A stretch of 64,000 bases of DNA from a virus (Duplodnaviria > Heunggongvirae > Uroviricota > Caudoviricetes), in IMG/VR virus record IMGVR_UViG_2563366977_000001, positions 1-64,000 of that record. The stretch is one strand, 5' to 3'. A program made the translations under genes and the position numbers. Shown in pieces: positions 1 through 35,530 of this stretch. The notes under the pieces were generated by a model that saw only the letters and a program-made list of their open reading frames with translations, did no database searches and was not told where the DNA came from. The first letter of the stretch is position 1. Each line of letters begins with the position of its first letter.

Positions 1-1854
1 CTGAAGTTTCGTTGCGGTTGCAGCATTGCCGGTAGTGCTCTGATTACCTGTTTTATTCACGCCTGGCAGGTCGATATTGGCGCTGCCATCAAATGATACT
101 CCGCCGATCGTTCGAGCTGTCTTGAGCTTTGTGGCAGTATCTGCGTTTCCCGTCAAATTACCAGTAATACCACCGCCAACTTTTACGCCGTTACCGATGG
201 ACACCAACCCAGTTCTTAAGTTTATAGAAAATGGTCTTAATGGCCCGATGTCACCATTTTCACCCTCCCCTTCATTTGTCGGAATAAGATGAAGATATTC
301 CTCGGATCTCCTGAAGATAAGGCCAAAGGCCTGGTTAAATATTCGAAGGGCATTTATTGTGCCAATTTTTAGCTGCCCCCCCATTGTGTCGCCAGAACGC
401 TGAACTGCGTTACCTGCTTGAGAAGCAATATCCGTTAAGCCAAGATCTTCAGGGGTCAGAGTAATATCTGCCGACCCATCAAATGCCACACCGTTAATCT
501 TTCTGGCTGTTTTTAATTTCGTCGCAGTATCGGCGTTCCCGGTCAGCGTACCAGTGATCCCCGCGCTGAAAGTCTGGCGTGCACTCCAGGTATTAGCTGT
601 GCTCAACAGGGGGATCTTTTCTCCGCTGGTTCCGAGTTCTCTTAAACCAAGGTATTGGATAACAGCCAGAGTGCTTGTTTTAGCCAGAATATCGCGACCG
701 ACTGACGTTAAATCAGTCTGGGCTACAGTGTCTGTTCCGGTAAAGTACGGTAATTTATTTGCACCCGTCGCCAGGCCAGCGAGCGCGGTTAAGGTTGCGT
801 CGAGAGGCTGCTTACCTGCAAGGGCATTTGTCATTGTAGTCGCAAAGTTCGGGTCATTGCCCAGCGCCGCAGCAAGCTCATTAAGAGTATCAAGAGCTTC
901 TGGTGATGAGCCGACCAATGCAGAAATAGCGGCACGAACATAAGCGGTTGTTGCAATCTGAGTGTTGTTCGTACCTTGTGACGCTGTAGGCGCTGTTGGC
1001 ACCCCTGTAAATGCCGGGCTTAATAACGGTGCTTTAAGAGCTAAAGCAGCATTAATCGTCTGGCTAAACTGAGGATCATTGTTAATTGCATCTGCAATTT
1101 TTTTCAGCGTATCCAACGCAGAAGGAGAACCATCAATAAGGGCGGTTATTGCGGCCTGAACAAAGGCAGTGTTTGCGATTTGTGTACTGTTTGTACCTTG
1201 TTCCGGAGTTGGAGATTTAGGTATACCAATAAACTCCGGGCTATCAACCGGAGCTTTTAGTTTGTTTAACGTGCTGATAGCAAGAGGCGTTGCGGCTTTA
1301 TATTCTTCGTCACTATCCAAAGCACTGGAGAACTCAACACCAACAGCACGATTAGCGCGATATTTAGTGCTAATCATATCTGCGGTAACGGCTTGAGCAT
1401 TGTCAGGCACGATCACGCGGCATAGCTCAATCTGGTTAGATGCTATTTCCTCATCAACGAGAGCAATAATTCTCGCTGCGCTAATATCCGATGAACTATC
1501 TACCTGGCTGGTTTTCACTCCATGTTCGTAATTAGCTTCAAGAACGATGATTGTCGTTACACCAGCTTCTACAGGAACAAGAACATCACTGACTTGCTGC
1601 ACGGATATCTGACATTTACCCACATCAATTGAAGCCGCCCCTCTTCCCTCTGTTTTCTCGGATGTAATCCGCACAAACAGGCCATCCCCTGGCATCGGTT
1701 CAAACCCACAGTACACACCGGGGAGAACGATATTTTTCATCTTCCTGTTTAGAGCTTCGGTGCTATACAGCTCAAAGTATTGCATGTCTGCAATTAGTGG
1801 CGCGGAAATGTCCGAAGATAAGGTGACAATGTTCTTTACTTTATCTGCGCACAT
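1..1854 (-). CDS. tail fibre protein, N-terminal part; gene continues beyond the window start
   Basis: Minus-strand frame open from an ATG near 1854 to the window edge. Translation carries repeated tail-fibre-type motifs (e.g. GNADTATKLKTAR..G..FDGSADI, GTNNTQIATTAYV). Plus-strand track ORFs here are antisense. Confidence 0.55.
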   Translation of the reverse strand, partial: MCADKVKNIVTLSSDISAPLIADMQYFELYSTEALNRKMKNIVLPGVYCGFEPMPGDGLFVRITSEKTEGRGAASIDVGKCQISVQQVSDVLVPVEAGVTTIIVLEANYEHGVKTSQVDSSSDISAARIIALVDEEIASNQIELCRVIVPDNAQAVTADMISTKYRANRAVGVEFSSALDSDEEYKAATPLAISTLNKLKAPVDSPEFIGIPKSPTPEQGTNSTQIANTAFVQAAITALIDGSPSALDTLKKIADAINNDPQFSQTINAALALKAPLLSPAFTGVPTAPTASQGTNNTQIATTAYVRAAISALVGSSPEALDTLNELAAALGNDPNFATTMTNALAGKQPLDATLTALAGLATGANKLPYFTGTDTVAQTDLTSVGRDILAKTSTLAVIQYLGLRELGTSGEKIPLLSTANTWSARQTFSAGITGTLTGNADTATKLKTARKINGVAFDGSADITLTPEDLGLTDIASQAGNAVQRSGDTMGGQLKIGTINALRIFNQAFGLIFRRSEEYLHLIPTNEGEGENGDIGPLRPFSINLRTGLVSIGNGVKVGGGITGNLTGNADTATKLKTARTIGGVSFDGSANIDLPGVNKTGNQSTTGNAATATKLQ

Positions 1855-1856
1855 AA

Positions 1857-2303
1857 TTATCCCTCGACCTGTTCAATGGTCATGAGCAAGCTGTATCGCT
1901 TACCTTTGAATAAGGTGTCCTGTTGAGTACAAACAACCCCAAAAGCCTGATCCTCTGCATCTACGAGAACCAGCGTATTGAAATCGTAAGGTGTATCGTC
2001 CGGCATCGTTTCTTGTGGAAAAGCGGCATTAATCGTAATGACACCATCGAGGCTGGAAAGAATGAGATTGGATTCAGCAAAATGCTGTGCATCACTTAAC
2101 TTGAAGTCGAGCGGAATATCAGAAATAGTCCAGCCACCAGCACTATTTACCGTCACAAGCTCGGACTTGCACCAATAAGCCTTTGTCATAACAAAACGCT
2201 CACCTCTGCCGATTGCAGACTCTGCACGGCGAGAGTAGTAGTAAGAAAGGAGTTGCGCCTTGTAAATACTTGAATCGCTTTGAGATTTTAAAGTTTCAGC
2301 CAT
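1857..2303 (-). CDS. tail-fibre-associated structural protein (position of P1 R)
   Basis: Track ORF, 148 aa, immediately upstream of and co-oriented with the tail fibre gene. Assignment by synteny only. Confidence 0.3.
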   Translation of the reverse strand: MAETLKSQSDSSIYKAQLLSYYYSRRAESAIGRGERFVMTKAYWCKSELVTVNSAGGWTISDIPLDFKLSDAQHFAESNLILSSLDGVITINAAFPQETMPDDTPYDFNTLVLVDAEDQAFGVVCTQQDTLFKGKRYSLLMTIEQVEG

Positions 2304-26059: not shown

Positions 26060-26822
26060 CGCAAAACGTCAGTGCTTTGATGCTCATATCATCGTTTAAC
26101 CTGAAGGTCGCGCGGTCCTGCCAGTTGATTGCAACTGTTGTTGCAACTTTTCCGGCTTCAATATGAGTCATTATTTCCTCTGACTGTAGGTCTACTTTCT
26201 TGCAACGAACTGCGCTGCCGTCATCGAACAGAGATTTCAATATGGCTTCTTCACCTGCTTTAAAGCCTTGAGGAAATGTTGACTTGAACCATTCGGTCAT
26301 AGTCATTTCGAGCGGTTCTATCGGCGTGAATGGAATCACCGGAAGGCTGCCAAGTGATTTACGTAAGAGCGCCAGCATTTCTTCTGCTTTTCTGGCGCTG
26401 GAAGCTTCCACGAAGACCAGATAGTTGTCGCGATCAATAAGGATTCGCGACAATGATTTGCGAGTGAATGCGCGAGGTAACAAAGAGTGGAGAACTTCAT
26501 CCTTCAGGGTGTTTTTTTCCGACTTCTTCAGCTTACGAGATTGCTCATTTTCGAGCTTTTCCACTTTTTTCTGCACTTCCTCCTTAATGACATGAGAGGG
26601 CAGGAGCTTAATTTCTCGCTGTTGCTGGAGAAGTAGAAAACCGTGGTATTCATGGATCAGGTTGTCAGCCAGAACCGGCACCCATCCGACTTTTGCCATT
26701 TCTTGTGATGCGCATGGAGTGAATGTGAATTGGCTTAAGGCATCACTAACGGTGGTTGAGTCCAGTTTAATTTCGCGGGCAAGGCGATAGACGTATATGT
26801 TTTTAAAGGCGACTAATCTCAT
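25917..26822 (-). CDS. rdgC: recombination-associated protein RdgC
   Basis: Strong colinear similarity to E. coli RdgC as I recall it (KLKKSEKNTLKDEVLHSLLPRAF, LALLRKSLGSLPV, DIDREDVAQRFDADFIL). Start placed at MRLVAFKN; the track ORF extends upstream through the operator palindrome. Confidence 0.8.
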   Translation of the reverse strand: MRLVAFKNIYVYRLAREIKLDSTTVSDALSQFTFTPCASQEMAKVGWVPVLADNLIHEYHGFLLLQQQREIKLLPSHVIKEEVQKKVEKLENEQSRKLKKSEKNTLKDEVLHSLLPRAFTRKSLSRILIDRDNYLVFVEASSARKAEEMLALLRKSLGSLPVIPFTPIEPLEMTMTEWFKSTFPQGFKAGEEAILKSLFDDGSAVRCKKVDLQSEEIMTHIEAGKVATTVAINWQDRATFRLNDDMSIKALTFCDDLYDQNDDIDREDVAQRFDADFILFTSELSAMFSSLVEAIGGEAEH

Positions 26823-26827
26823 GTTTC

Positions 26828-26875
26828 GCAAAACTGTGTTAGAAAATGAAACTAAATTATCTAACACAGTTTTGC
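26828..26875. promoter_or_regulatory. perfect inverted repeat operator (15-bp arms GCAAAACTGTGTTAG / CTAACACAGTTTTGC) upstream of rdgC
   Basis: gcaaaactgtgttagaaaatgaaactaaattatctaacacagttttgc; contains the recurrent TGTTAGAAAAT core. Confidence 0.6.
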
Positions 26876-26881
26876 ATTTTG

Positions 26882-27559
26882 CTATCCCTTCACAAAGGAG
26901 AAATTGCTCGCTGTTGCTTTTAGCGCGCCACCAGCTTTCAGGGCTATATCACCATCAGCGGCGACGGTTACATTGCTGCCTTTTACATTAACGTCTCCAT
27001 CAGAGGATACATTGGTTTTGCTGCTTGATTTGACGTTAACCTCACCTCCAGCATTAAGCACTATATTCGCCGGGCCGATTATGTAAATCTGGCCGGATTC
27101 GTTCATCCCTATCCTTGATCCTGCGGCGGTGTTTGCTATTTCATAGCCACCGCCAGCCGTTCTTACCTCAAGGATATTGTTTCGGTGAATAACAAAATCT
27201 TCAGTCGCCGAAAACTGGGGGCGGGCAGGAGCACCATCAACTTCTTCTGGCGACCATCCACTTCCTTGTCCGGAGGCTTCCGGAGGCACATTTGGTACGC
27301 CTCCTGGGGCATCCTGCGCCGCGCCAACGATTAAAGGTCGGCGCGTGTCTATCCTGCCTTTAGCATCCAGATAAGGAAATTCGACCCAGACTAAATCGCC
27401 GCTGACTGTAGGTGTAAAGGCGTTACCGATAGGCATTTGATACTCTGCCCATGGGAGGTCTTCATCCGGTACACCGTTCCAGTCAGGCAGTATGCGGACC
27501 TGCGCTCGCATAAGTCCGGCAGGGTGTTTGGTCCCTACGATTTGCGCTCTGCGTTTCAC
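26882..27559 (-). CDS. baseplate central spike protein (gpV-like)
   Basis: 225 aa; N-terminal region typical of P2 gpV-like spikes (DLVWVEFPYLDAKGR) and a Gly-rich beta-helical C-terminus. Confidence 0.4.
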   Translation of the reverse strand: MKRRAQIVGTKHPAGLMRAQVRILPDWNGVPDEDLPWAEYQMPIGNAFTPTVSGDLVWVEFPYLDAKGRIDTRRPLIVGAAQDAPGGVPNVPPEASGQGSGWSPEEVDGAPARPQFSATEDFVIHRNNILEVRTAGGGYEIANTAAGSRIGMNESGQIYIIGPANIVLNAGGEVNVKSSSKTNVSSDGDVNVKGSNVTVAADGDIALKAGGALKATASNFSFVKG

Positions 27560-28536
27560 TGGTTGGGTACTCCTAATATCATTCGTGTTGTATAGCCGAT
27601 CCGGTCTTCAAAATGGGCTACGTTTTTCACCAGCAGCTTACGAGGCAACGATTCGTCCAGCTTATTTTCCTGGTCGTAACGATACACGAGGATCTCAATA
27701 ACCATTCCCGGCGTGATGTCGGGATTACCCGCGACCTCAATATCCATTTTGGGTACGAGCGACAATTGCATATTGCGCAGAGTTTCCATATCCGGATCGG
27801 ATATATAGCGTATTGGAAGTGAGCTATCGCCATATTCGACATAGCCTTCAGTCATTGAATAGCCGGTAAATCGATACTGAGTATTTGCCGTAACGGCATA
27901 CTCTTGCTGTATAAGCCTCATTTTTGAAATCGTGTATTCCGCCCTGGGGTTGTTCCCTTCATAGGTGAATGATGGTTTGGCTTTCATAAGGTCAGCTAAT
28001 GTATAAAAGTTAAACTGACCACGGCAGGCCCAGCATAAAGCGCCTTTGTCGCGGGCCATTTCAGATAGCATTTTGGAGGGTTTTTCCCCGGCGGAAAGAT
28101 GGTACGTACAGCTTCGTTTCAATGCGCTGGAGGCGATTTTCAGTGTACCGGTATACGTCTTGAAGATGGTATCAGGCGTTTTATTTGTATGCAGGTTAGC
28201 CCGTAGAGCGGGGATCTTAAATATCCGAACGTCTTCACTGACTGCAATGACCGTAATGACATCACCAGCCAGCACCGCAGATGTTACGAAAAAAGTTGTT
28301 TTAAACGTACCTGAATTGCCTTGTGGATCACCCATCTCTGCAACCAGTGCTGCGCCGTATTTTGTTTTCCAGTCATCAATTATGGTGCCGGTAATGTCGT
28401 GAATTTCCAGTTTCAGCAATGGTGCACGCAGGTTTGCCTTTTCCACATATACGGCAGTGAATATCCACTCCCTGGGCACTTTGTTTCCGTTGATGGTAAT
28501 GGACTGTAGAAAGTATTGCTGTAGCTCCTGGGACAT
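27556..28536 (-). CDS. tail/baseplate protein
   Basis: Track ORF, 326 aa, adjacent to the gpV-like gene with a 4-nt overlap. Confidence 0.3.
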   Translation of the reverse strand: MSQELQQYFLQSITINGNKVPREWIFTAVYVEKANLRAPLLKLEIHDITGTIIDDWKTKYGAALVAEMGDPQGNSGTFKTTFFVTSAVLAGDVITVIAVSEDVRIFKIPALRANLHTNKTPDTIFKTYTGTLKIASSALKRSCTYHLSAGEKPSKMLSEMARDKGALCWACRGQFNFYTLADLMKAKPSFTYEGNNPRAEYTISKMRLIQQEYAVTANTQYRFTGYSMTEGYVEYGDSSLPIRYISDPDMETLRNMQLSLVPKMDIEVAGNPDITPGMVIEILVYRYDQENKLDESLPRKLLVKNVAHFEDRIGYTTRMILGVPNQ

Positions 28537-28539
28537 GGC

Positions 28540-29307
28540 TTACCCCATTCTCAGAGAGGTTTCAGTAATAATTCGTTTCGCGTCCAGCTCCCAGGCGGTG
28601 ATCACGTCTGCTATAACACTAATTGCCGTTTGTGCAGCATAAATACGCTCTTCCCCAATTGGGGCTGAAACATCAGTAAAACTGATGTCTTTAGCATCCT
28701 GAATCGCGCAGATTAGCGGGACGGGTACTCGTACCAGCGGGGTTGTTGCTTCAAACTGCGTTCCTGCCATCAAGCGAAGACGTGCTCCTAGCGAATTACA
28801 CATCAGACTCATGGTCGCCTTATCCGTCGCCATTAACGTAACGTCATACGTCAGATTTGCCTGGGTGTATTCCAGGGCTACTAAAGGCATACCGCTGCCA
28901 GGTTCGCAGAAGTGATCACAGCTTTTGCGGTCTATCTGCTGGTCATTGTTGATATAGCTGATATCCATTGAGCGCGAGATATTAATCAGAGGGAGCGCAT
29001 CGCGATTAATGTTCGGATTCTCTGGCTTTCTCCCTTGCCCGGCATTAGCACGGCGAACCGCTTTAAGGAACTCGACCGCGTTATCAAAACGGGCAACATA
29101 AACACGCTCCGCTGGTGGGCGACTCAGGAATGATGCAAAGCGCCTTTCTTCTTTTGCTGGTTCCACCAGCGTTACGTCAGAAAAAATGTCGCTGATTAGC
29201 GTAGCAAAAGCGTTATCCACTCTTTCCAGACCAGTTGTCTGGAATTTTCCGGTACGCGTTGTCTGCCACTCGCCAATGCGGGACAGGAGAGTTTTGTTGG
29301 GTGTCAT
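28540..29307 (-). CDS. tail/baseplate protein
   Basis: Track ORF, 255 aa. Confidence 0.3.
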   Translation of the reverse strand: MTPNKTLLSRIGEWQTTRTGKFQTTGLERVDNAFATLISDIFSDVTLVEPAKEERRFASFLSRPPAERVYVARFDNAVEFLKAVRRANAGQGRKPENPNINRDALPLINISRSMDISYINNDQQIDRKSCDHFCEPGSGMPLVALEYTQANLTYDVTLMATDKATMSLMCNSLGARLRLMAGTQFEATTPLVRVPVPLICAIQDAKDISFTDVSAPIGEERIYAAQTAISVIADVITAWELDAKRIITETSLRMG

Positions 29308-30107
29308 TCGATCACTCCGTTTTGAGTGGTATCAAAGTTCCTGGCCGGGATGCAGTAATACAGGGAGCCGACGTGTTGTGTTCCGTAGCTGAAGATTCGA
29401 TGCACGTACCACCAGCGGCGGGCGAGGCCATTCGCCATTTCTTCGTTCCATTCCAGGATTGAACCAACAGGTACGTTGTTTGCAGCAATACGCAGGATTA
29501 GCACTTCATCAGCAAGACCATCCTGTTCTCCATCGGCATCAATGGCATGAAACGAATCCCTTCCGTCCGGGTTATCCAGGACGTATACGATTTCCGGTTC
29601 CAGATAGGTAAGCTCACGCTGGTTGTTGTCCAGTTGCGTGAAAGACTCTTCACCTGTTTCATCGTTTACGACGCCATAGGTGCCATCAGCCGGGCGGTAT
29701 AAAAGCGCCTCGAACGCGTCAGGGCTTGATTCAATAATGAGCATCCAATCGGCGCGGATCTGGTCGTTGAACGCTTTATGTCCGTTATATCGGGTTTTAA
29801 GCTGCTGGTTTGGTTCTCTGTTAGCGAGCGATGCCGGTAGGGGAGCGATGTCAGGTTCAATCACTTCCGTAACAGAGTCACCAGCATTATCAGGCCAATT
29901 ATCATGGCTATTAGATTGGGTGGCGGCGTGCTCTTCCAGAATACTGAATGGCCCTGCACTGACATTCCCATTTTCCGTTGTGCTTCCTTCATTCGCTTCA
30001 ACCGTCGTTGTCTCTTCTCTCTGCGTGCTGTCATGTTCTGTTCCCTTTCTCATCAGGCTTGCATCATCAGCAAGCCATTCATCAAAACGGCCCATAAGCG
30101 TCCTCAA
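29304..30107 (-). CDS. tail/baseplate protein
   Basis: Track ORF, 267 aa, with an acidic N-terminal region. Confidence 0.3.
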   Translation of the reverse strand: MRTLMGRFDEWLADDASLMRKGTEHDSTQREETTTVEANEGSTTENGNVSAGPFSILEEHAATQSNSHDNWPDNAGDSVTEVIEPDIAPLPASLANREPNQQLKTRYNGHKAFNDQIRADWMLIIESSPDAFEALLYRPADGTYGVVNDETGEESFTQLDNNQRELTYLEPEIVYVLDNPDGRDSFHAIDADGEQDGLADEVLILRIAANNVPVGSILEWNEEMANGLARRWWYVHRIFSYGTQHVGSLYYCIPARNFDTTQNGVIE

Positions 30108-30258
30108 AGGTCGATTTATCAGGTATCGAAAGGAAGATTTTCGGGAGATTGTGATTTTGGATGGAGGAGGGGAATTGTTGCAATATGCACTTGCGCACGG
30201 TGCAACGGTGCGCTATCATTATGACATTCATTAATAATCATGGAGGATAAGATGATCG

Positions 30259-30561
30259 ATGAGCAAAAAGATTAACATAAAGAATTTCAGGGATGAGTGG
30301 CTTGATGATTTTTTTGAATTTTCAATACCACACAAAAAGATACCTTCTGATATTCAGATTACATTGTTGCGGAAGCTGGATATTATCAATGCTGCAACTA
30401 CTTGGAAGGACTTGAGATCACCACCAGGTAATCGGTATGAGGAATTGTCAGGGAAGCTAAACGGCTATTCATCAATAAGGGTGAATAAGCAATACAGGTT
30501 AATTTTTAAGTGGGTTAACGGAAAGGCCGAGGACTTGTATCTCGACCCTCACAAATACTAA
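30259..30561 (+). CDS. higB: HigB-family toxin (RelE/ParE superfamily, plasmid maintenance killer)
   Basis: 100 aa, pattern ...DLRSPPGNRYEELSG...SIRVNKQYRLIFKW...LDPHKY, followed by a VapI-type HigA gene. Confidence 0.65.
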   Translation: MSKKINIKNFRDEWLDDFFEFSIPHKKIPSDIQITLLRKLDIINAATTWKDLRSPPGNRYEELSGKLNGYSSIRVNKQYRLIFKWVNGKAEDLYLDPHKY

Positions 30562-30632
30562 AACAAATACCCGGCGGATGGGCCGGGTACTGACCAGAGT
30601 CCACTTAATACGCACGCTAGTAAGGGCAAAAA

Positions 30633-30971
30633 ATGAAACAGGCAACCAGAAAACCGACGACTGTAGGTGATATCCTGCTGTACGAATACCTGGAGCCGTT
30701 AGAGCTTAAGATCAACGAGTTAGCAGAAATACTTCATGTTCATCGTAACACCGTAAGTGCTCTTGTTAATAATAATCGTAAGCTAACGATGGATATGGCA
30801 TATCGCCTGGCAAAAGCATTCGATACTTCTGTAGATTTTTGGATTAATCTTCAGACCGCAGTAGACCTGTGGGAAGTCGAAAATGATATGCGCGTTCAGG
30901 AAGAGTTAAGTCGTATCAATACTGCTGAAAAATTTATTTCTCAGCGGAACCTGAATAAAAAAGCAGCCTGA
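30633..30971 (+). CDS. higA: HigA antitoxin (XRE helix-turn-helix, VapI-type)
   Basis: VGDILLYEYLEPLELKINELAEILHVHRNTVSALVNN...AYRLAKAFDTSVDFWINLQ, the characteristic HigA HTH. Confidence 0.7.
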   Translation: MKQATRKPTTVGDILLYEYLEPLELKINELAEILHVHRNTVSALVNNNRKLTMDMAYRLAKAFDTSVDFWINLQTAVDLWEVENDMRVQEELSRINTAEKFISQRNLNKKAA

Positions 30972-30987
30972 TATAGTAAAACACATA

Positions 30988-31018
30988 CAAAAAGCCCACT
31001 TAACAAGTGGGCTTTCCT
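30988..31018 (+). terminator. rho-independent terminator
   Basis: aaagcccacttaacaagtgggctttcctttgg. Confidence 0.55.
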
Positions 31019-31388
31019 TTGGAATTAATGAACATTAAACCTATCCGTACAGAACAAGATTATGAGGCCGCACTGCGTGAAGTCGAACCGATGTTCGATA
31101 ACGAACCGGAAATGAATACCCCGGAAGGTGATTTCTTTGAGGTCATGTGTCTTCTCATTGAGGAGTACGAGAAAAAACATTATTCCAATTGAGCCACCAT
31201 CACCTATTGAAGCCATTAAGTTCCGTATGGAACAGCAAGGGCTGACCGTGAAGGATCTGGAACCGGCTATTGGTAAATCAAATCGTGTTTACGAGGTGCT
31301 AAATGGGACACGAAATTTGACGTTACCTATGATTCGCCGTTTACATTCCCAGTTTGGCATTCCTCTTGAAAGCCTAGTTGGTGTTTAA
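31007..31388 (+). pseudogene. HigA-family antitoxin-like HTH protein interrupted by a +1 frameshift
   Basis: Two track ORFs (31007..31192 and 31128..31388) join into one family-typical protein (...EEYEKKHY|PIEPPSPIEAIKFRMEQQGLT...) if one T is removed from cattattcc near 31180. Confidence 0.55.
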
Positions 31389-31449
31389 GTTTGGCGGTCT
31401 GGATGACCGCTTTTACCAAAAGTAAAGTTAAGAAGGTTTGATTGTTTAT

Positions 31450-32187
31450 ATGAGCAAAGATTCATCATTAGAAAATAAAGATGAAAATATCACTGTCAAG
31501 AATACAATCGAAGAAGCCATTAGAGACAAGTTATTTAATAAGTTGTTTGCATATGTTGTGGTTTCTTTTTTTGTCGTTAACTGGCAGGATATTTTCATTT
31601 TATTTAAATCAAAGTACGATATATATACGACATTATCTATAGTATGGGTAGGTGATGAGTATAATATCCCCTTTTTGCCATCATTCATTTTGCCACCATT
31701 TGTAGCTCATTTTGTCATGCCATTTATATATGGCACTGTTGCGTCTGTTATTATACCTTATGTTACGTTGTTTATATCGAAAGCCACAGGTAGAAATTAT
31801 GCAAGGATACGATATCTTGATTATGAATTTGATTTGAAAGAGAAAGCCAAAATAGAAGATTTAATGTTTGATCTGCGTAGCAAAGAAAGCGCCAGATTAG
31901 ATTTGGATGCAGCAATAGAGGAGAGAATAAAATCATTAAGTGCAATCGACTCTAAGAACAAAGAGCTTCTGGACGACAGAGTTGCTTTGTTCGAAGGCAT
32001 AAAAGCGATAGTGGATGTATATACAGAAAAAAATAAAAGAATCTCCTCGCCTGAAGATTTTGTTGATTTATTAAAGGCTGTGGAAAGAACTGATTTTTAT
32101 AAGGATATTGGTTTGTCTGGCATAAATGATTTAATAGCTGATTTAAAGAATACTTACGAAGACATACTTAAACCCATGTCCGACTAA
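31450..32187 (+). CDS. membrane protein of unknown function (AT-rich cargo gene)
   Basis: Start MSKDSS; two to three transmembrane segments (FAYVVVSFFVVNWQDIFILF; FILPPFVAHFVMPFIYGTVASVIIPYVTLFI) then a charged, probably coiled-coil C-terminal domain. No family recognised. Confidence 0.45.
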   Translation: MSKDSSLENKDENITVKNTIEEAIRDKLFNKLFAYVVVSFFVVNWQDIFILFKSKYDIYTTLSIVWVGDEYNIPFLPSFILPPFVAHFVMPFIYGTVASVIIPYVTLFISKATGRNYARIRYLDYEFDLKEKAKIEDLMFDLRSKESARLDLDAAIEERIKSLSAIDSKNKELLDDRVALFEGIKAIVDVYTEKNKRISSPEDFVDLLKAVERTDFYKDIGLSGINDLIADLKNTYEDILKPMSD

Positions 32188-32280
32188 CGCTTAAAAGGCG
32201 GATTTTCCGCCTTGCTTTGATGACTTTGATGTAAAACATTTTTTCAGCTATTTGAACACCATGATGGTGTTATTCGTGAT

Positions 32281-32760
32281 TTGTCATTTCTTGATGCTCA
32301 TCAGGCTGTGTTTGTTCAGCAACAAGAAGGAAAGCAACCGATAGAGTATCGCTTTTGGGTTACGTACTCTTTTCACTGCTTCACAAAAGACTATGCACAC
32401 CAGACTGAGGAAGAGAAACTGGCGTTAATGTACCACGCCCCTAAAGAGTCTCGTCCATTTTGTGAGCGTCGCTATAATCTTGCCAAACTTCACTTAAAAG
32501 AGGCAATTCTGTCATTGTCGGAAGGTAAGGTGATCCATGCCGGATACGGAAGCTATGCCGTTATTGAGGTAAATATTGGGGAGGGTAACAAGGAGTATTA
32601 TTTTGTTGCGTTTAAGGCTTTCAGGGAAAAGAAAAAGTTGCGGTTACACATCACTAGCGCCTACCCGGTATCAGAAAAACCAAATGGCAGGTCAGTGAAG
32701 TTTTTCGCAATCGCATACAATCTGTTAAGGAACAAACCGCTTCCTAAGCCACCAAAATAA
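32281..32760 (+). CDS. hypothetical soluble protein (AT-rich cargo gene)
   Basis: 159 aa, no recognisable motif; co-oriented with the membrane gene and followed by a terminator. Confidence 0.4.
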   Translation: MSFLDAHQAVFVQQQEGKQPIEYRFWVTYSFHCFTKDYAHQTEEEKLALMYHAPKESRPFCERRYNLAKLHLKEAILSLSEGKVIHAGYGSYAVIEVNIGEGNKEYYFVAFKAFREKKKLRLHITSAYPVSEKPNGRSVKFFAIAYNLLRNKPLPKPPK

Positions 32761-32761
32761 C

Positions 32762-32785
32762 AAAGCCCACCTTAAGGTGGGCTTC
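32762..32785 (+). terminator. terminator hairpin
   Basis: aaagcccaccttaaggtgggctt. Confidence 0.5.
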
Positions 32786-32985
32786 GCCAGAAATTATTTT
32801 CTGGTATTCAGAACGCCATTACCGGACTTTGCCTTGACCAAGTATCACAACAGGCTTGACCTGTTATGATAGCTGGTTGCGGGATGTCTGAATTTCTTCA
32901 GTCTGCTGCATCCTCGAAGGTTTGGTTCAACATGTACCATTCCTTCACCGTCATAATAGTGAACTATTCACGTCCTTACAAACAC

Positions 32986-34191
32986 TTATACATTTTTTAC
33001 GTTGTTCTTCACATACGCCATGAACATCTTTTCGGCTTGTGCTGGTGGTGTTCCTGCCATAACAAGCGCGTCAATGAACGCCTGCTTCTTCAGTGCGAAC
33101 TGGTCAGCAAGACGTTGCTGAAGTTCCTTGTTTTTCTGCTTCTCCCGTTGCAAAGCAGCTTCTTTTGCCGCTGCCCGTTTTTTCTGTGCGTCGGATAACT
33201 TTCTGGCCCTCGTCAGTTGGTCGCGCAGCTTGTCGATCTTACCGTTGTCCTTTGCCAGTTTTGAGCTTAAAGCGGCCTGGCGTTTCTGATAGAGCTTCCA
33301 TTCACGTTTAGCTGCCTCAACATTCGTTTTGCTGCTACGGTTTCGATTGAACGCCTTCTCGTCTTCTTTTGTGAAGTGTTTTGTCGTGCGGCGGCGATCG
33401 TCACCAAAGGCAACTTGCGTTGCAGCTTTTTGCAGGGCGCGAGCAATACTCATCTGCCAACTGGCAGACTGTAGTCGTGTCATTGAGTGGATCACATGTT
33501 TACAGGCGACGCCTTGCAGCTTAGGGTTGCGAACTTTTGGATAGGCGTATTCTTTTGGCGGGGCCAGGGCAAAGTTACCCGCAGTGGCGATGTAGCGATA
33601 CCAGTATTGATGGCGACCGCAGTCACAATCGAAAGACACTCGCCCGGCACACAGTGATTTTGTGACTTTCAGGGCTGATTTATCGTCTTCTGCGATGTCA
33701 TCGACCATCTGATCCCATTCTTCAAAACGTACCCGGACAATGTGGTGCTGGTGAACGGATATATCGGACGCTTCCACGCGGATATTAATCACATTGTGAC
33801 GAAGAGATACGGGCGTAGCTCTTTTGATACCAGAACCGTCGTCTACGGCGTTATTTGCTCGCTTAATATCGATAGCCTGGCTGGACGCTACCAGTTGTGC
33901 GTATGTAATGCCAGCCGTCTTGCTGTCGTATTTTTCGCGTGCTTTGCTTCGCAGCTTTTCGAAGCCTTTCAGATCGTCACGCGTAAAGAACGTGCCGCCT
34001 TTCTTTTTCCCCAGCTTAAGAATGTCTTCGGCTGATTTATTCCTAAGCCTGCCCGGCGTGAGTGTCCTGTGCGCCTGGCGGCGTTTGCGGTTTTGCTCTT
34101 TCCTGATGAGTTCAAATACGCGTGTGAAATCCTTAGAGGACAGGCCGTCAGTGATATATCGCCCGTCCTGATTTTTCAGGAAGTCAGGCAT
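32986..34191 (-). CDS. basic protein with SWIM-like zinc-finger motif and coiled-coil C-terminus
   Basis: 401 aa; FDCDCGRHQYWYRYIATAGNFALAPP...VACKHVIH gives a CxC...CxH arrangement; K/R/Q-rich C-terminal third. Confidence 0.4.
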   Translation of the reverse strand: MPDFLKNQDGRYITDGLSSKDFTRVFELIRKEQNRKRRQAHRTLTPGRLRNKSAEDILKLGKKKGGTFFTRDDLKGFEKLRSKAREKYDSKTAGITYAQLVASSQAIDIKRANNAVDDGSGIKRATPVSLRHNVINIRVEASDISVHQHHIVRVRFEEWDQMVDDIAEDDKSALKVTKSLCAGRVSFDCDCGRHQYWYRYIATAGNFALAPPKEYAYPKVRNPKLQGVACKHVIHSMTRLQSASWQMSIARALQKAATQVAFGDDRRRTTKHFTKEDEKAFNRNRSSKTNVEAAKREWKLYQKRQAALSSKLAKDNGKIDKLRDQLTRARKLSDAQKKRAAAKEAALQREKQKNKELQQRLADQFALKKQAFIDALVMAGTPPAQAEKMFMAYVKNNVKNV

Positions 34192-34513
34192 TTTCTATCT
34201 CCGGTGCCGAGCCAGCGTAATCGCGAATCTTGTTTCTTAGCCATGCTGCGTCAGGAAGAGTTAACGTTGTCCCTACCGGCATTTCTTCCATTTCTGACTC
34301 ATGGCCCACCAGCACGCGAAATACCCAGCGCAAATCAGCGTTGCCATAGGCGCGATAGGCCGCCAGGTCTGAGCGATAAACCTCATCAATTTTTATCGTG
34401 TACTGGAAATTATCGGAGTGATACTCCGATACCCGCTTGATCATCTCCTGATGGAATAGTGCGCGCAGCACATCGTCTTCAATGCATCGATCGTCGAGCC
34501 TGCTGTAACTCAT
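34184..34513 (-). CDS. hypothetical protein
   Basis: 109 aa; 8-nt overlap with the start of the SWIM-like gene suggests translational coupling. Confidence 0.35.
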   Translation of the reverse strand: MSYSRLDDRCIEDDVLRALFHQEMIKRVSEYHSDNFQYTIKIDEVYRSDLAAYRAYGNADLRWVFRVLVGHESEMEEMPVGTTLTLPDAAWLRNKIRDYAGSAPEIENA

Positions 34514-34605
34514 AACAGTTCCTCACAGTCATAACCTGGGGGGAACTGTATGCAGGGTGTGAAATGCGAGAAAGCAGCGTCACCTTGCCTGGTGACGCTG
34601 TGAAA

Positions 34606-34887
34606 TTATGCGTGTGAAAATAATGGACGGATGTTTGGGCGAGCGGTTTGCGAAGCAACCCAAAGCTCATACTGGGATTGCATACCGGTCCACATTTCGG
34701 CACTGGTTCCAAGAGCGGACTCCAGACGAAGTGCCATATCAGCGGAAATACCTGTTTTTTCGTTCAAAATTCGGGAAAGTGCCGTGCGAGTAATGCCTAA
34801 TGCAGCAGCGGTGTCTGTGACTGATATGTCTCCCAAATATTCACGAAGAACCGCGCCTGGATGCGCGGGATTATGCATACGACTCAT
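34606..34887 (-). CDS. HigA-type antitoxin-like XRE HTH protein (VapI-type), orphan
   Basis: [18 protein letters not shown]...[38 protein letters not shown]. Confidence 0.6.
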
Positions 34888-35183
34888 ATGTGGAAAGCAA
34901 CCCGTTTACCGGTTGGCAATTCAACGTCCAGACTCAACTTCCCACCCATAGCCTCAACGTAACGTTTAAGCGTTGCCACTTTCAAGTCATTGCCTCGTTG
35001 TTCAAGTTTTGTGATGGCTGGTTGACTAATTCCCATCGCATCGGCAACTGTTTTTTGTGATAACTGAAGCTCCTCTCTCAACATCTGCAATCCGACTTCC
35101 AGAATCATTTCATCAGCCTGCTCTTTGATACGAGCTTGGCTTTCAGGGGATTGCGCAGCAATAACTTCTCTTAGAGTTCTCAT
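34884..35183 (-). CDS. XRE-family antitoxin (HigA2-like) paired with the Gp49-like toxin
   Basis: 99 aa HTH protein ([43 protein letters not shown]) overlapping the toxin gene end. Confidence 0.55.
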
Positions 35184-35530
35184 TATTTTTTCTCAAGTTC
35201 TGCAAGATGGTTGGAAAATTCGTCGTCTGCAATCCGTATCATTCTTTCGTAGAACTTTTTATCGTTACTTTTATCTCCGGCGCACAGGATTATGGCTTGC
35301 CTTACCGGATCAAATGCGAAGAATGCTCTGATAGGGCGACCAGCGTACTGAATCCGTAACTCCTTCATGTTTTTATGGCGTGAGCCTTTAACTGTGTCGG
35401 CATATGGCCTTGATAATGAAGGGCCATATGTTTCCAGATTGATCAGGTCAACCAGGATTTTTTCTTTTAATGCAGGTTCCTGTTCCTGGAACCATTCATC
35501 AAAAATTTTTCCAAAATAAATTTGCCACAT
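35183..35530 (-). CDS. RelE/ParE-superfamily toxin, phage Gp49-like (HigB2-like)
   Basis: 115 aa; I recognise the pattern of Gp49-like addiction-module killers; first gene behind a perfect palindromic operator. Confidence 0.55.
   Translation of the reverse strand: MWQIYFGKIFDEWFQEQEPALKEKILVDLINLETYGPSLSRPYADTVKGSRHKNMKELRIQYAGRPIRAFFAFDPVRQAIILCAGDKSNDKKFYERMIRIADDEFSNHLAELEKK

Follow-up and report, generated by a model that had tools for sequence, protein, structure and literature searches.

Probable mosaic junction between a solitary orf73-family membrane-protein gene and a truncated yjaZ in a tail-gene hotspot of a D6-like phage-plasmid

The 64,000-nucleotide stretch of DNA analyzed here (the window) is a D6-like (P1-group) phage-plasmid, and its region around positions 31450 to 32785 is probably a mosaic in which two independent cargo units meet, within the gene-7/gene-25 hotspot, rather than a two-gene system. 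The sequence-only reading had correctly recognized two co-oriented ORFs at 31450 to 32187 and 32281 to 32760, encoding 245 and 159 residues (genes 1 and 2), but its interpretation as a two-gene cassette was not borne out, as no co-occurrence was found across independent lineages. The main result is therefore corrective: adjacency within a hotspot had been taken for an operon, a terminator hairpin had been read as the edge of a cassette, and the comparative context points to a recombination scar instead of a cassette. Gene 1 is a real, solitary, AT-rich moron, whereas gene 2 is, judged by descent in sequence comparisons, a truncated member of the YjaZ/HtrC family. The features of the region are listed in Table 1.

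Table 1. Features of the hotspot and its flanks, in window coordinates
Feature	Position	Strand	Evidence
Left hotspot flank, D6 orf69/P1 tail gene 7 homologue	29304..30107	-	Collinear with D6 orf69, "similar to P1 gene 7"
higB toxin (RelE-like)	30259..30561	+	Pfam PF05015, E 1.2e-34; corresponds to D6 orf70
higA antitoxin (HTH_3)	30633..30971	+	Pfam PF01381, E 7e-11; corresponds to D6 orf71
Hairpin AAGCCCAC-N7-GTGGGCTT after higA (earlier left bracket)	30992..31014	not assigned	
higA2-like HTH gene (D6 orf72 homologue), frameshifted	31007..31388	+	Alignment with D6 and NZ_CP085065
Hairpin after higA2, 7-bp GC-rich stem then TTTTACC	31393..31411	+	Fold -14.6 kcal/mol, z -2.7
Gene 1, intact, D6-orf73/phrog_8191 family, 245 aa	31450..32187	+	phrog_8191 profile, E 1.5e-107
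Terminator-like hairpin after gene 1, GGCGGA-loop-CCGCC then TTGCTTTG	32195..32213	+	Fold -12.6 kcal/mol, z -3.2
Putative recombination junction, where the 3′ flank of the orf73 module meets yjaZ at about codon 10	32249..32250	not assigned	Similarity breakpoints
Gene 2, 5′-truncated YjaZ (HtrC) family ORF, 159 aa, TTG start	32281..32760	+	NF007263; PF27200
sroH-like sRNA, full length	32762..32947	-	Rfam RF00372, 113 bits (gathering 80), E 6e-27, model 1-161
Sigma-70-like promoter, TTGTAA-17-TATTAT	32953..32981	-	Promoter scan
Right hotspot flank, D6 orf74/P1 tail gene 25 homologue	32986..34191	-	

Both genes lie inside a variable spot bounded by homologues of the P1 tail genes 7 and 25. The contents of the spot were found to vary among D6/P1-like relatives, which carry orf73 with an intact higA2, orf73 with a truncated higA2, higB2-higA2-orf73, higBA-higA2 without orf73, or yjaZ alone. 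This neighbourhood comparison bore out the suggestion that the region is variable cargo in a D6/P1-like phage-plasmid hotspot, and conservation in all related phages, which would have spoken against it, was not seen. Specifically, window positions 26649 to 32149 align with NZ_CP085065, which has higB-higA-higA2-orf73 without yjaZ, and this similarity stops at 32149; positions 32250 to 34888 are 99.1% identical to pEC361_3, which has yjaZ without higBA and without orf73. The truncation of gene 2 coincides with the junction at about 32249/32250. At a coverage of ≥80%, the gene pair was found in 0 of 127 related plasmids from PLSDB and in 0 of 5,426 complete genomes of E. coli. Genes 1 and 2 occur together in one lineage only, with identical spacing in all eight contigs listed, of at least 24, and the pair-bearing contigs are near-identical (0 to 9 mismatches in 2.8 kb). 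No YjaZ neighbour was found beside other gene 1 homologues, and no orf73 neighbour beside other YjaZ homologues.

The arrangement is probably explained by the following events. Unit A, comprising gene 1, would have arrived with the higB-higA-higA2 block, and unit B would derive from the yjaZ-sroH locus of the chromosome, as a copy of it. An illegitimate recombination event would have linked yjaZ, at approximately codon 10, to the 3′ flank of unit A, so that yjaZ lost its promoter region, ribosome-binding site, and start codon along with 20 conserved residues. Exact-pattern scans of viral and metagenome contigs for the 3′ end of the gene 1 allele of the window returned no match, and the orf73-only parent of the window lineage, i.e., the parental allele without yjaZ, was not found in the contigs scanned, so that we infer the direction of the event.

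The sequence-only reading had left both proteins without a named family. Profile searches supplied one for each: phrog_8191 for gene 1, and YjaZ (NF007263/PF27200) for gene 2. YjaZ is annotated as a "stationary phase growth adaptation protein" and was formerly called HtrC, a designation that has been retracted (PMC11551758). Gene 2 matched NF007263 with an E value of 4.4e-87 and 290.7 bits, which is below the curated cut-off of 324, and it covered only profile positions 21 to 179 of 179. It resembles the chromosomal yjaZ of E. coli (about 75% amino-acid and 79% nucleotide identity) but differs from it in being phage-plasmid-borne and in lacking the first 20 codons and the expression signals. 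Along with the 20 N-terminal residues, which include the near-invariant W8, F11, and D20, gene 2 has lost its upstream region, its AAGGAG ribosome-binding site, and the GTG codon at which yjaZ natively starts. The native start (GTGAGTCAGGAAGTTGAAAAGTGG...) and the AAGGAG site are present in pEC361_3 and in an E. fergusonii plasmid and are replaced in the window, where in-frame TGA stops are located at 32221 and 32227.

Gene 2 is probably an inactive remnant, a pseudogene of recent origin that has not decayed so far. Continued translation of the shortened ORF (from TTG 32281 or ATT 32272) into a functional protein appears rather unlikely, even though the 159-codon frame is open, is predicted by some gene callers, and is identical to the intact yjaZ of pEC361_3 over 480 nt. 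All 21 of the 21 invariant YjaZ columns are kept (S..F..Y..HCF, L.Y, PF..RY, Y..F, R.H..SA, F, L, P), including the HCF, RPF, and RLHxxSAYP motifs. The match to the pEC361_3 copy attests to no more than a recent event, however, and the loss of the AAGGAG site, the native start, the gene's own upstream region, and the three conserved residues argues against function, as does the position of the ORF just 3′ of a terminator-like hairpin. Moreover, within the lineage gene 2 shows three non-synonymous changes, all in one sub-lineage and including Y92H at a Tyr that is near-invariant, and no synonymous change, whereas gene 1 shows two synonymous and no non-synonymous changes between the same sub-lineages; both sets of counts are too small for statistics. 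Intact copies of yjaZ, with 42 synonymous versus 12 non-synonymous codon differences, are under purifying selection. A RelE/ParE-fold toxin was also considered for YjaZ, and no significant structural or profile similarity was obtained.

The convergent sroH-like sRNA, with its promoter-like site and terminator, is intact by sequence comparison, and the window lineage keeps this RNA while the yjaZ protein gene is beheaded. At the E. coli chromosomal locus, yjaZ occupies positions 1471 to 2010 (+) and sroH positions 2012 to 2172 (-), and the convergent yjaZ-sroH arrangement is alike in the chromosome, in the yjaZ-type plasmid loci (L002 and L004), and in the window. Like chromosomal SroH (RF00372), the window RNA ends 2 nt after the yjaZ stop codon; relative to the Rfam model, it carries an insertion of about 25 nt. 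The sigma-70-like promoter is placed such that it could start the RNA at approximately 32947. Its terminator is the hairpin at 32763 to 32784, the stem of which is intact and folds on the minus strand with -23 kcal/mol (z -5.1). Apart from one in vitro target of SroH, kbl, the papers found assign no function to YjaZ or SroH, and the phage-plasmid copies of yjaZ-sroH offer a natural handle on these two poorly understood E. coli genes.

For gene 1, the homologues begin with MSxDSS at ATG 31450, whereas the first start in the ORF list is TTG 31438. Both genes had been described as AT-rich, which holds for gene 1, with a GC content of 0.327 versus 0.474 for the window (lowest 0.08% of 738-nt windows), but not for gene 2 (0.431, 16th percentile). 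The match to phrog_8191 reached 359.7 bits and placed residues 1 to 244 on profile positions 1 to 240 of 242. As anticipated by the sequence-only reading, transmembrane segments are followed by a coiled-coil-like domain: hydropathy indicates two hydrophobic segments at about residues 32 to 54 and 73 to 111, positive charges are predicted after the second, and AF2 places a long helical, coiled-coil-like region behind them, in a model of low confidence (pLDDT 65, pTM 0.28). The invariant alignment columns of the family form motifs that are present in gene 1, namely, DKLFNK...SF...NW...KSK..D at the N terminus and HF..PF..G..AS..P..T in TM2; the invariant residues include Asn44/Trp45 in TM1 and Pro91, Gly95, and Pro103 in TM2. 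The product is predicted to be an inner-membrane protein with two transmembrane segments, a cytoplasmic N terminus, and a fast-diverging, helical C-terminal domain in the cytoplasm. Pfam, NCBIfam, PADLOC, and PDB sequence searches with gene 1 gave nothing beyond coiled-coil noise. The idea of a defence module found no match in the PADLOC-DB 2.0.0 models, with 0 families at E ≤ 1 for either protein, and distant gene 1 relatives match only the coiled-coil parts of the LmuB and JetC models.

A close known counterpart is orf73 of phage D6, which occupies the same place after higA2 and between the gene-7 and gene-25 homologues and has the same architecture of two transmembrane segments and a helical tail. 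The two proteins share only 35% amino-acid identity, however, and in D6 orf73 is followed by the gene 25 homologue, whereas in the window lineage gene 1 is followed by the yjaZ remnant. No function is assigned to D6 orf73 in the papers found. At least five divergent, intact allele classes of gene 1 occupy this site (omega 0.1 to 0.6), with N-terminal halves that are 48 to 83% identical and C-terminal halves that are 17 to 55% identical; the window allele forms a distinct class, the nearest other class being about 67 to 70% identical. Among 50,697 phage records, the family was found in D6 only. A full-length homologue, P0148, was detected in Klebsiella P2-like prophages (201 aligned columns, hhalign probability 99.5%), where it lies at the orf30 moron site on the opposite strand between the tail genes V and S, with a GC content of 0.35 versus 0.60 for the backbone. 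The P2 site between genes S and V (orf30) is a recognized moron region (PMC6823313); both phage family and site differ from those of the window, and the orf30 of P2 itself is a 261-bp ORF. A 247-aa neighbour of P0148 in this site was ruled out as a relative of gene 1, to which it is unrelated. A search of IMG/VR with P0148 for related loci found nothing, and a homologue search with the distant gene 1 alignment added almost none. Further homologues, solitary as well, were found next to genes for an EcoRI-type methylase and for GmrSD/HNH, on a genomic island, and among chromosomal genes.

Some prophage morons code for membrane proteins that keep superinfecting phages out, among them HK97 gp15, in a tail-gene cluster, and P22 SieA (cf. 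PMC3594210, PMC10883804). Gene 1 would resemble these in kind and context only, as a solitary, independently terminated, AT-rich gene for a small inner-membrane protein in or against the tail-gene cluster of a temperate element; most of its protein mass is predicted to be cytoplasmic. Its product would be expressed from the prophage and act at the inner membrane. Immediately 5′ of gene 1, the promoter scan gave no convincing candidate, and its expression in the lysogen is therefore assumed. The most likely role, which we put forward tentatively, would be the exclusion of other phages, through a block to the entry of their genomes or through membrane disruption upon sensing of an infection; gene 1 alone is a plausible candidate for such a function. 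Somewhat more speculatively, the family could represent an uncharacterized single-gene phage-exclusion system that combines an effector, a conserved and oligomerizing hairpin of two TM segments, with a cytoplasmic sensor domain prone to rapid diversification, and that is found in tail-cluster moron sites of two unrelated temperate lineages, D6/P1-like phage-plasmids and P2-like prophages, as well as in a restriction/GmrSD neighbourhood. Orf73/phrog_8191 is in any case a compact, multi-allelic, solitary membrane-protein moron common to phage-plasmids and P2-like prophages and a cheap candidate for phage exclusion.

In D6-like as well as P2-like elements, the family is located amid tail and baseplate genes, which, together with the small two-TM architecture, might also suggest a phage life-cycle accessory, such as a lysis factor of the holin type or a membrane factor involved in assembling the tail or delivering the DNA. 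We consider this improbable, since gene 1 runs opposite in strand to the tail operons, has a sharply lower GC content and its own hairpin, and is missing from some otherwise complete D6-like plasmids; in addition, D6 is the only one of the 50,697 phage records with the family, which is found outside prophages too. Neither the gene 1 nor the gene 2 protein resembles virion, lysis, or replication proteins, clear homology to which would have counted against the sequence-only reading.

Genes 1 and 2 had been described as wedged between toxin-antitoxin modules, of which one adjoins them. The higBA pair at 30259 to 30971, a HigB-like toxin domain followed by an HTH antitoxin as in type II HigBA systems, is the sole complete module next to genes 1 and 2, whereas the second (HTH antitoxin and Gp49-type toxin, 34884 to 35530, minus strand) lies 1.8 kb away behind two tail/baseplate genes and belongs to a different variable spot. 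The higA2-like gene between higBA and gene 1 is broken by a +1 T insertion near 31192 and reads as ORFs 31007 to 31192 and 31128 to 31388, with split gene calls in all eight contigs listed of the window lineage. In D6-like elements an orf73 homologue always lies directly 3′ of a 119- to 120-aa HTH gene, an arrangement that could make gene 1 a toxin with the HigA2-like protein as its antitoxin or repressor. This pairing is very unlikely and was rejected on the ground that most carriers have a degraded HigA2, which is frameshifted in the window lineage and shortened to 66 aa in the most common plasmid type, while gene 1 is intact in both. Furthermore, where a PF09907 HigB-type toxin is present in relatives, the intact HTH protein is its partner, homologues outside D6-like elements have no HTH neighbour, and a hairpin lies between the HTH gene and gene 1.

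Least credible is a two-component defence or abortive-infection system of membrane effector and soluble partner: the genes are co-oriented and adjacent in a cargo hotspot beside toxin-antitoxin genes and recur in at least 24 contigs, but those contigs are one near-identical lineage, each gene elsewhere always occurs without the other, gene 2 is truncated at the junction, a terminator-like hairpin intervenes, and PADLOC gives no match.

The hairpins are in agreement with two separate units. The one at 32195 to 32213 has a T-rich tail and separates gene 1 from gene 2, each of which has a hairpin of its own, and a homologous hairpin is located 3′ of orf73 in NZ_CP085065. The two hairpins that had been taken to bracket a cassette do share the core AAGCCCAC...GTGGGCTT (30992 to 31014 and 32763 to 32784; two matches observed versus none expected in 100 shuffles). 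They do not delimit one unit, however: the left hairpin is positioned upstream of the frameshifted higA2-like gene instead of flanking gene 1 and goes with higA in D6 and in all higBA-type relatives, whereas the right one, the sroH-like terminator, goes with yjaZ.

The two open reading frames exist as had been described from sequence alone, and both lie in a region matched by Escherichia phage D6, with 92% identity across higB-higA-higA2, and by about 127 D6-like plasmids, which are non-mobilizable, roughly 90 kb in size, and hosted by E. coli, Salmonella, and Shigella (PLSDB). The flanking homologs of the P1 tail genes 7 and 25 are both encoded on the minus strand, and the two genes therefore lie within a plus-strand island between them. 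Neighborhood comparison confirmed the expectation that this hotspot holds variable cargo, as island contents differ between D6-like relatives. The commonest type (38 of the 60 plasmids listed) consists of higB-higA, a 66-residue higA2 stump, and orf73; other types are higB2-higA2-orf73 and higB-higA-higA2 without orf73. The hotspot of a Raoultella D6-like plasmid (L029, 3001-6540) contains an intact yjaZ homolog followed by umuD/umuC-like genes and a helix-turn-helix (HTH) gene, so several cargo units can accumulate there.

Features of the hotspot and of a second variable spot nearby (window coordinates)
Feature	Position	Strand	Remark
P1 tail gene 7 homolog	29304-30107	-	named so in D6 annotation; flank
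First core hairpin	30992-31014		follows higA in every higA-bearing relative
higA2-like HTH gene (D6 orf72 homolog)	31007-31388	+	split into two ORFs by +1 T insertion at ~31192
Hairpin after higA2	31393-31411
Gene 1	31450-32187	+
Hairpin between genes 1 and 2	32195-32213
Gene 2	32281-32760	+
Full-length sroH-like sRNA	32762-32947	-	Rfam RF00372, 113 bits (gathering 80), E 6e-27
Second core hairpin	32763-32784		follows yjaZ in every yjaZ-bearing relative
Promoter-like site	32981-32953	-	TTGTAA-17-TATTAT
P1 tail gene 25 homolog	32986-34191	-	named so in D6 annotation; flank
Orphan HigA-like HTH gene	34606-34887	-	toxin present in pEC361_3, replaced in window
HTH antitoxin	34884-35183	-
Gp49/HigB-like toxin	35183-35530	-

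The proposal of the sequence-only reading that genes 1 and 2 form a two-gene defense cassette was contradicted by their distribution: each occurs without the other in relatives, and the pair is limited to one lineage. BLAST against the fetched relatives revealed a clean mosaic across the window. Positions 26649-32149 align with plasmid NZ_CP085065, whose island is higB-higA-higA2-orf73, whereas positions 32250-34888 are 99.1% identical to plasmid pEC361_3, whose island is a single gene for a 179-residue protein annotated as "stationary phase growth adaptation protein"; plasmids of E. marmotae and E. fergusonii carry the same island. The pair was found in no PLSDB plasmid and in 0 of 5,426 complete E. 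coli genomes; it is present in draft and metagenome assemblies, on at least 24 contigs. These represent one recent lineage, with identical spacing in all 8 contigs among the matches listed and 0 to 9 mismatches per 2.8 kb. Two hairpins do share the core AAGCCCAC...GTGGGCTT (2 matches versus 0 expected), but they bracket no cassette, since one goes with higA and the other with yjaZ, and each island gene has its own hairpin. The reported AT-richness applies to gene 1 (GC 0.327 versus 0.474 for the window; lowest 0.08% among equal-sized windows), but not to gene 2 (0.431, 16th percentile). Moreover, both proteins belong to catalogued families, phrog_8191 and YjaZ, although the sequence-only reading had matched neither to one.

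Gene 1 is the counterpart of D6 orf73 (35% identity) and is matched end to end by phrog_8191 (E 1.5e-107). Its product is predicted to be a membrane protein, as previously suggested, with hydrophobic stretches at approximately residues 32 to 54 and 73 to 111, basic residues after the second, and then a long helical region; AlphaFold2 places helices at residues 10-43, 83-193, and 201-240 with low confidence (pLDDT 65, pTM 0.28). Only 17 clusters were found in 5.8 billion proteins, all from E. coli or Salmonella, and an exhaustive profile search returned 72 representatives at E <= 0.001, mostly of 200 to 370 residues and all annotated as "hypothetical." Near-identical backbones carry at least five different allele classes of gene 1 at this site. 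Between alleles, synonymous divergence is saturated, with omega of 0.1 to 0.6, and identity is 48 to 83% in the N-terminal membrane half versus 17 to 55% in the C-terminal half; invariant residues are concentrated in the former (N44 and W45 in TM1; P91, G95, and P103 in TM2). Gene 1 is a solitary, multi-allelic moron: one conserved gene that moves independently and encodes a protein with two predicted TM segments and a helical tail that varies. Residue 49 in TM1 is Phe in the window (31594, T for C) and Leu in the other lineage contigs among the matches listed, a private nonsynonymous change; the 40%-identity allele class also has Phe there.

A Klebsiella homolog, P0148 (201 aligned columns, hhalign probability 99.5%), is found by itself between the P2-type tail genes V and S, which are encoded on the other strand; its GC content is 0.35 versus 0.60 for the backbone. 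This site is one of three classical P2 moron regions (PMC6823313). In this P2-like prophage (L026, 4700-6700) the site contains two AT-rich genes, P0148 and a 247-residue ORF on the tail-gene strand, which is unrelated to P0148 and about as long as the 741-bp ORF that has been described there for phage R18C. A distant relative, P0196 (284 residues; L022, 2589-5855), follows an EcoRI-type methylase and a GmrSD_N/HNH gene at a distance of 10 nt, in what looks like a defense-island context. Of two more solitary relatives, one shares a genomic island with H-NS and the other is flanked by chromosomal housekeeping genes. By analogy only with morons that lie in tail regions and encode membrane proteins (PMC3594210, PMC10883804), gene 1 may be expressed from the prophage and act at the inner membrane, where exclusion of other phages would be its most plausible function, a role that we regard as possible rather than likely. 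Gene 1 by itself is a candidate for phage exclusion. PADLOC matched no defense model, and the promoter scan revealed no clear promoter directly upstream. The upstream HigA2-like HTH gene was rejected as a required partner, because it is frameshifted here and truncated elsewhere while gene 1 is intact regardless; where a PF09907 HigB toxin is present, that toxin is its partner.

Gene 2 is a 5'-truncated yjaZ. NCBIfam NF007263 (YjaZ) matches it at profile positions 21-179 only (E 4.4e-87), with 290.7 bits, below the curated cut-off of 324, and its precomputed Pfam label is PF27200 YjaZ. The yjaZ gene of pEC361_3 and of the E. fergusonii plasmid starts with AAGGAG-N6-GTGAGTCAGGAAGTTGAAAAGTGG; upstream of about 32250 the window instead contains 3'-flanking sequence of the orf73 module. 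In-frame TGA codons lie at 32221 and 32227, and the earliest possible starts, ATT at 32272 and TTG at 32281, both lack a good Shine-Dalgarno sequence. Twenty residues are lost, including the near-invariant W8, F11, and D20. The 480 nt that are left match the pEC361_3 copy exactly; hence, the truncation is recent and the open frame is uninformative on function. One sub-lineage carries three changes in gene 2, all nonsynonymous (W26C, Y92H, and V130A; Y92 is a near-invariant Tyr), versus two differences in gene 1, both synonymous; the numbers are small, but point in the expected direction. Intact plasmid yjaZ copies differ by 42 synonymous versus 12 nonsynonymous codons. Gene 2 is most likely inactive. 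YjaZ proteins (~180 residues) are widespread across Gammaproteobacteria, solitary at all loci examined, and absent among the 50,697 phage records searched; the former name "heat-shock protein C" has been retracted (PMC11551758).

In the window, only the small-RNA half of the yjaZ-sroH cargo is intact. The second core hairpin forms the terminator stem of the sroH-like RNA; its fold is more favorable on the minus strand (-23 kcal/mol, z -5.1), where the hairpin has a U-tail. The position of the promoter-like site appears to fit transcription beginning near 32947. On the E. coli chromosome, sroH is convergent to yjaZ, 2 nt past its stop codon, in the same layout as in the window, and yjaZ-type plasmids also carry a convergent sroH. 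This shared layout identifies the cargo as a copy of the yjaZ-sroH locus of the chromosome, and hence phage-plasmids harbor an sRNA locus copied from the chromosome. The sroH-like RNA is probably the sole working product of this unit in the window's lineage. Compared with the Rfam model, its sequence contains ~25 inserted nt. One in vitro target of SroH, kbl, has been reported (PMC6172242).

The +1 T insertion in higA2 is common to all lineage contigs among the matches listed and is therefore not a sequencing error; in most other D6-like plasmids, only 66 residues of this gene's product are left. In some D6-like plasmids a PF09907 HigB-type toxin is encoded immediately upstream of the 119-residue HTH protein (L013, 3275-3940; L020, 1237-1902; L024, 4273-4938), so the D6/window copy looks like an orphan antitoxin, which would have been left after a different higBA pair replaced its toxin and might serve in anti-addiction against related plasmids. 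A second variable spot is located at 34606-35530 on the minus strand, and similarity to pEC361_3 stops exactly at 34888.
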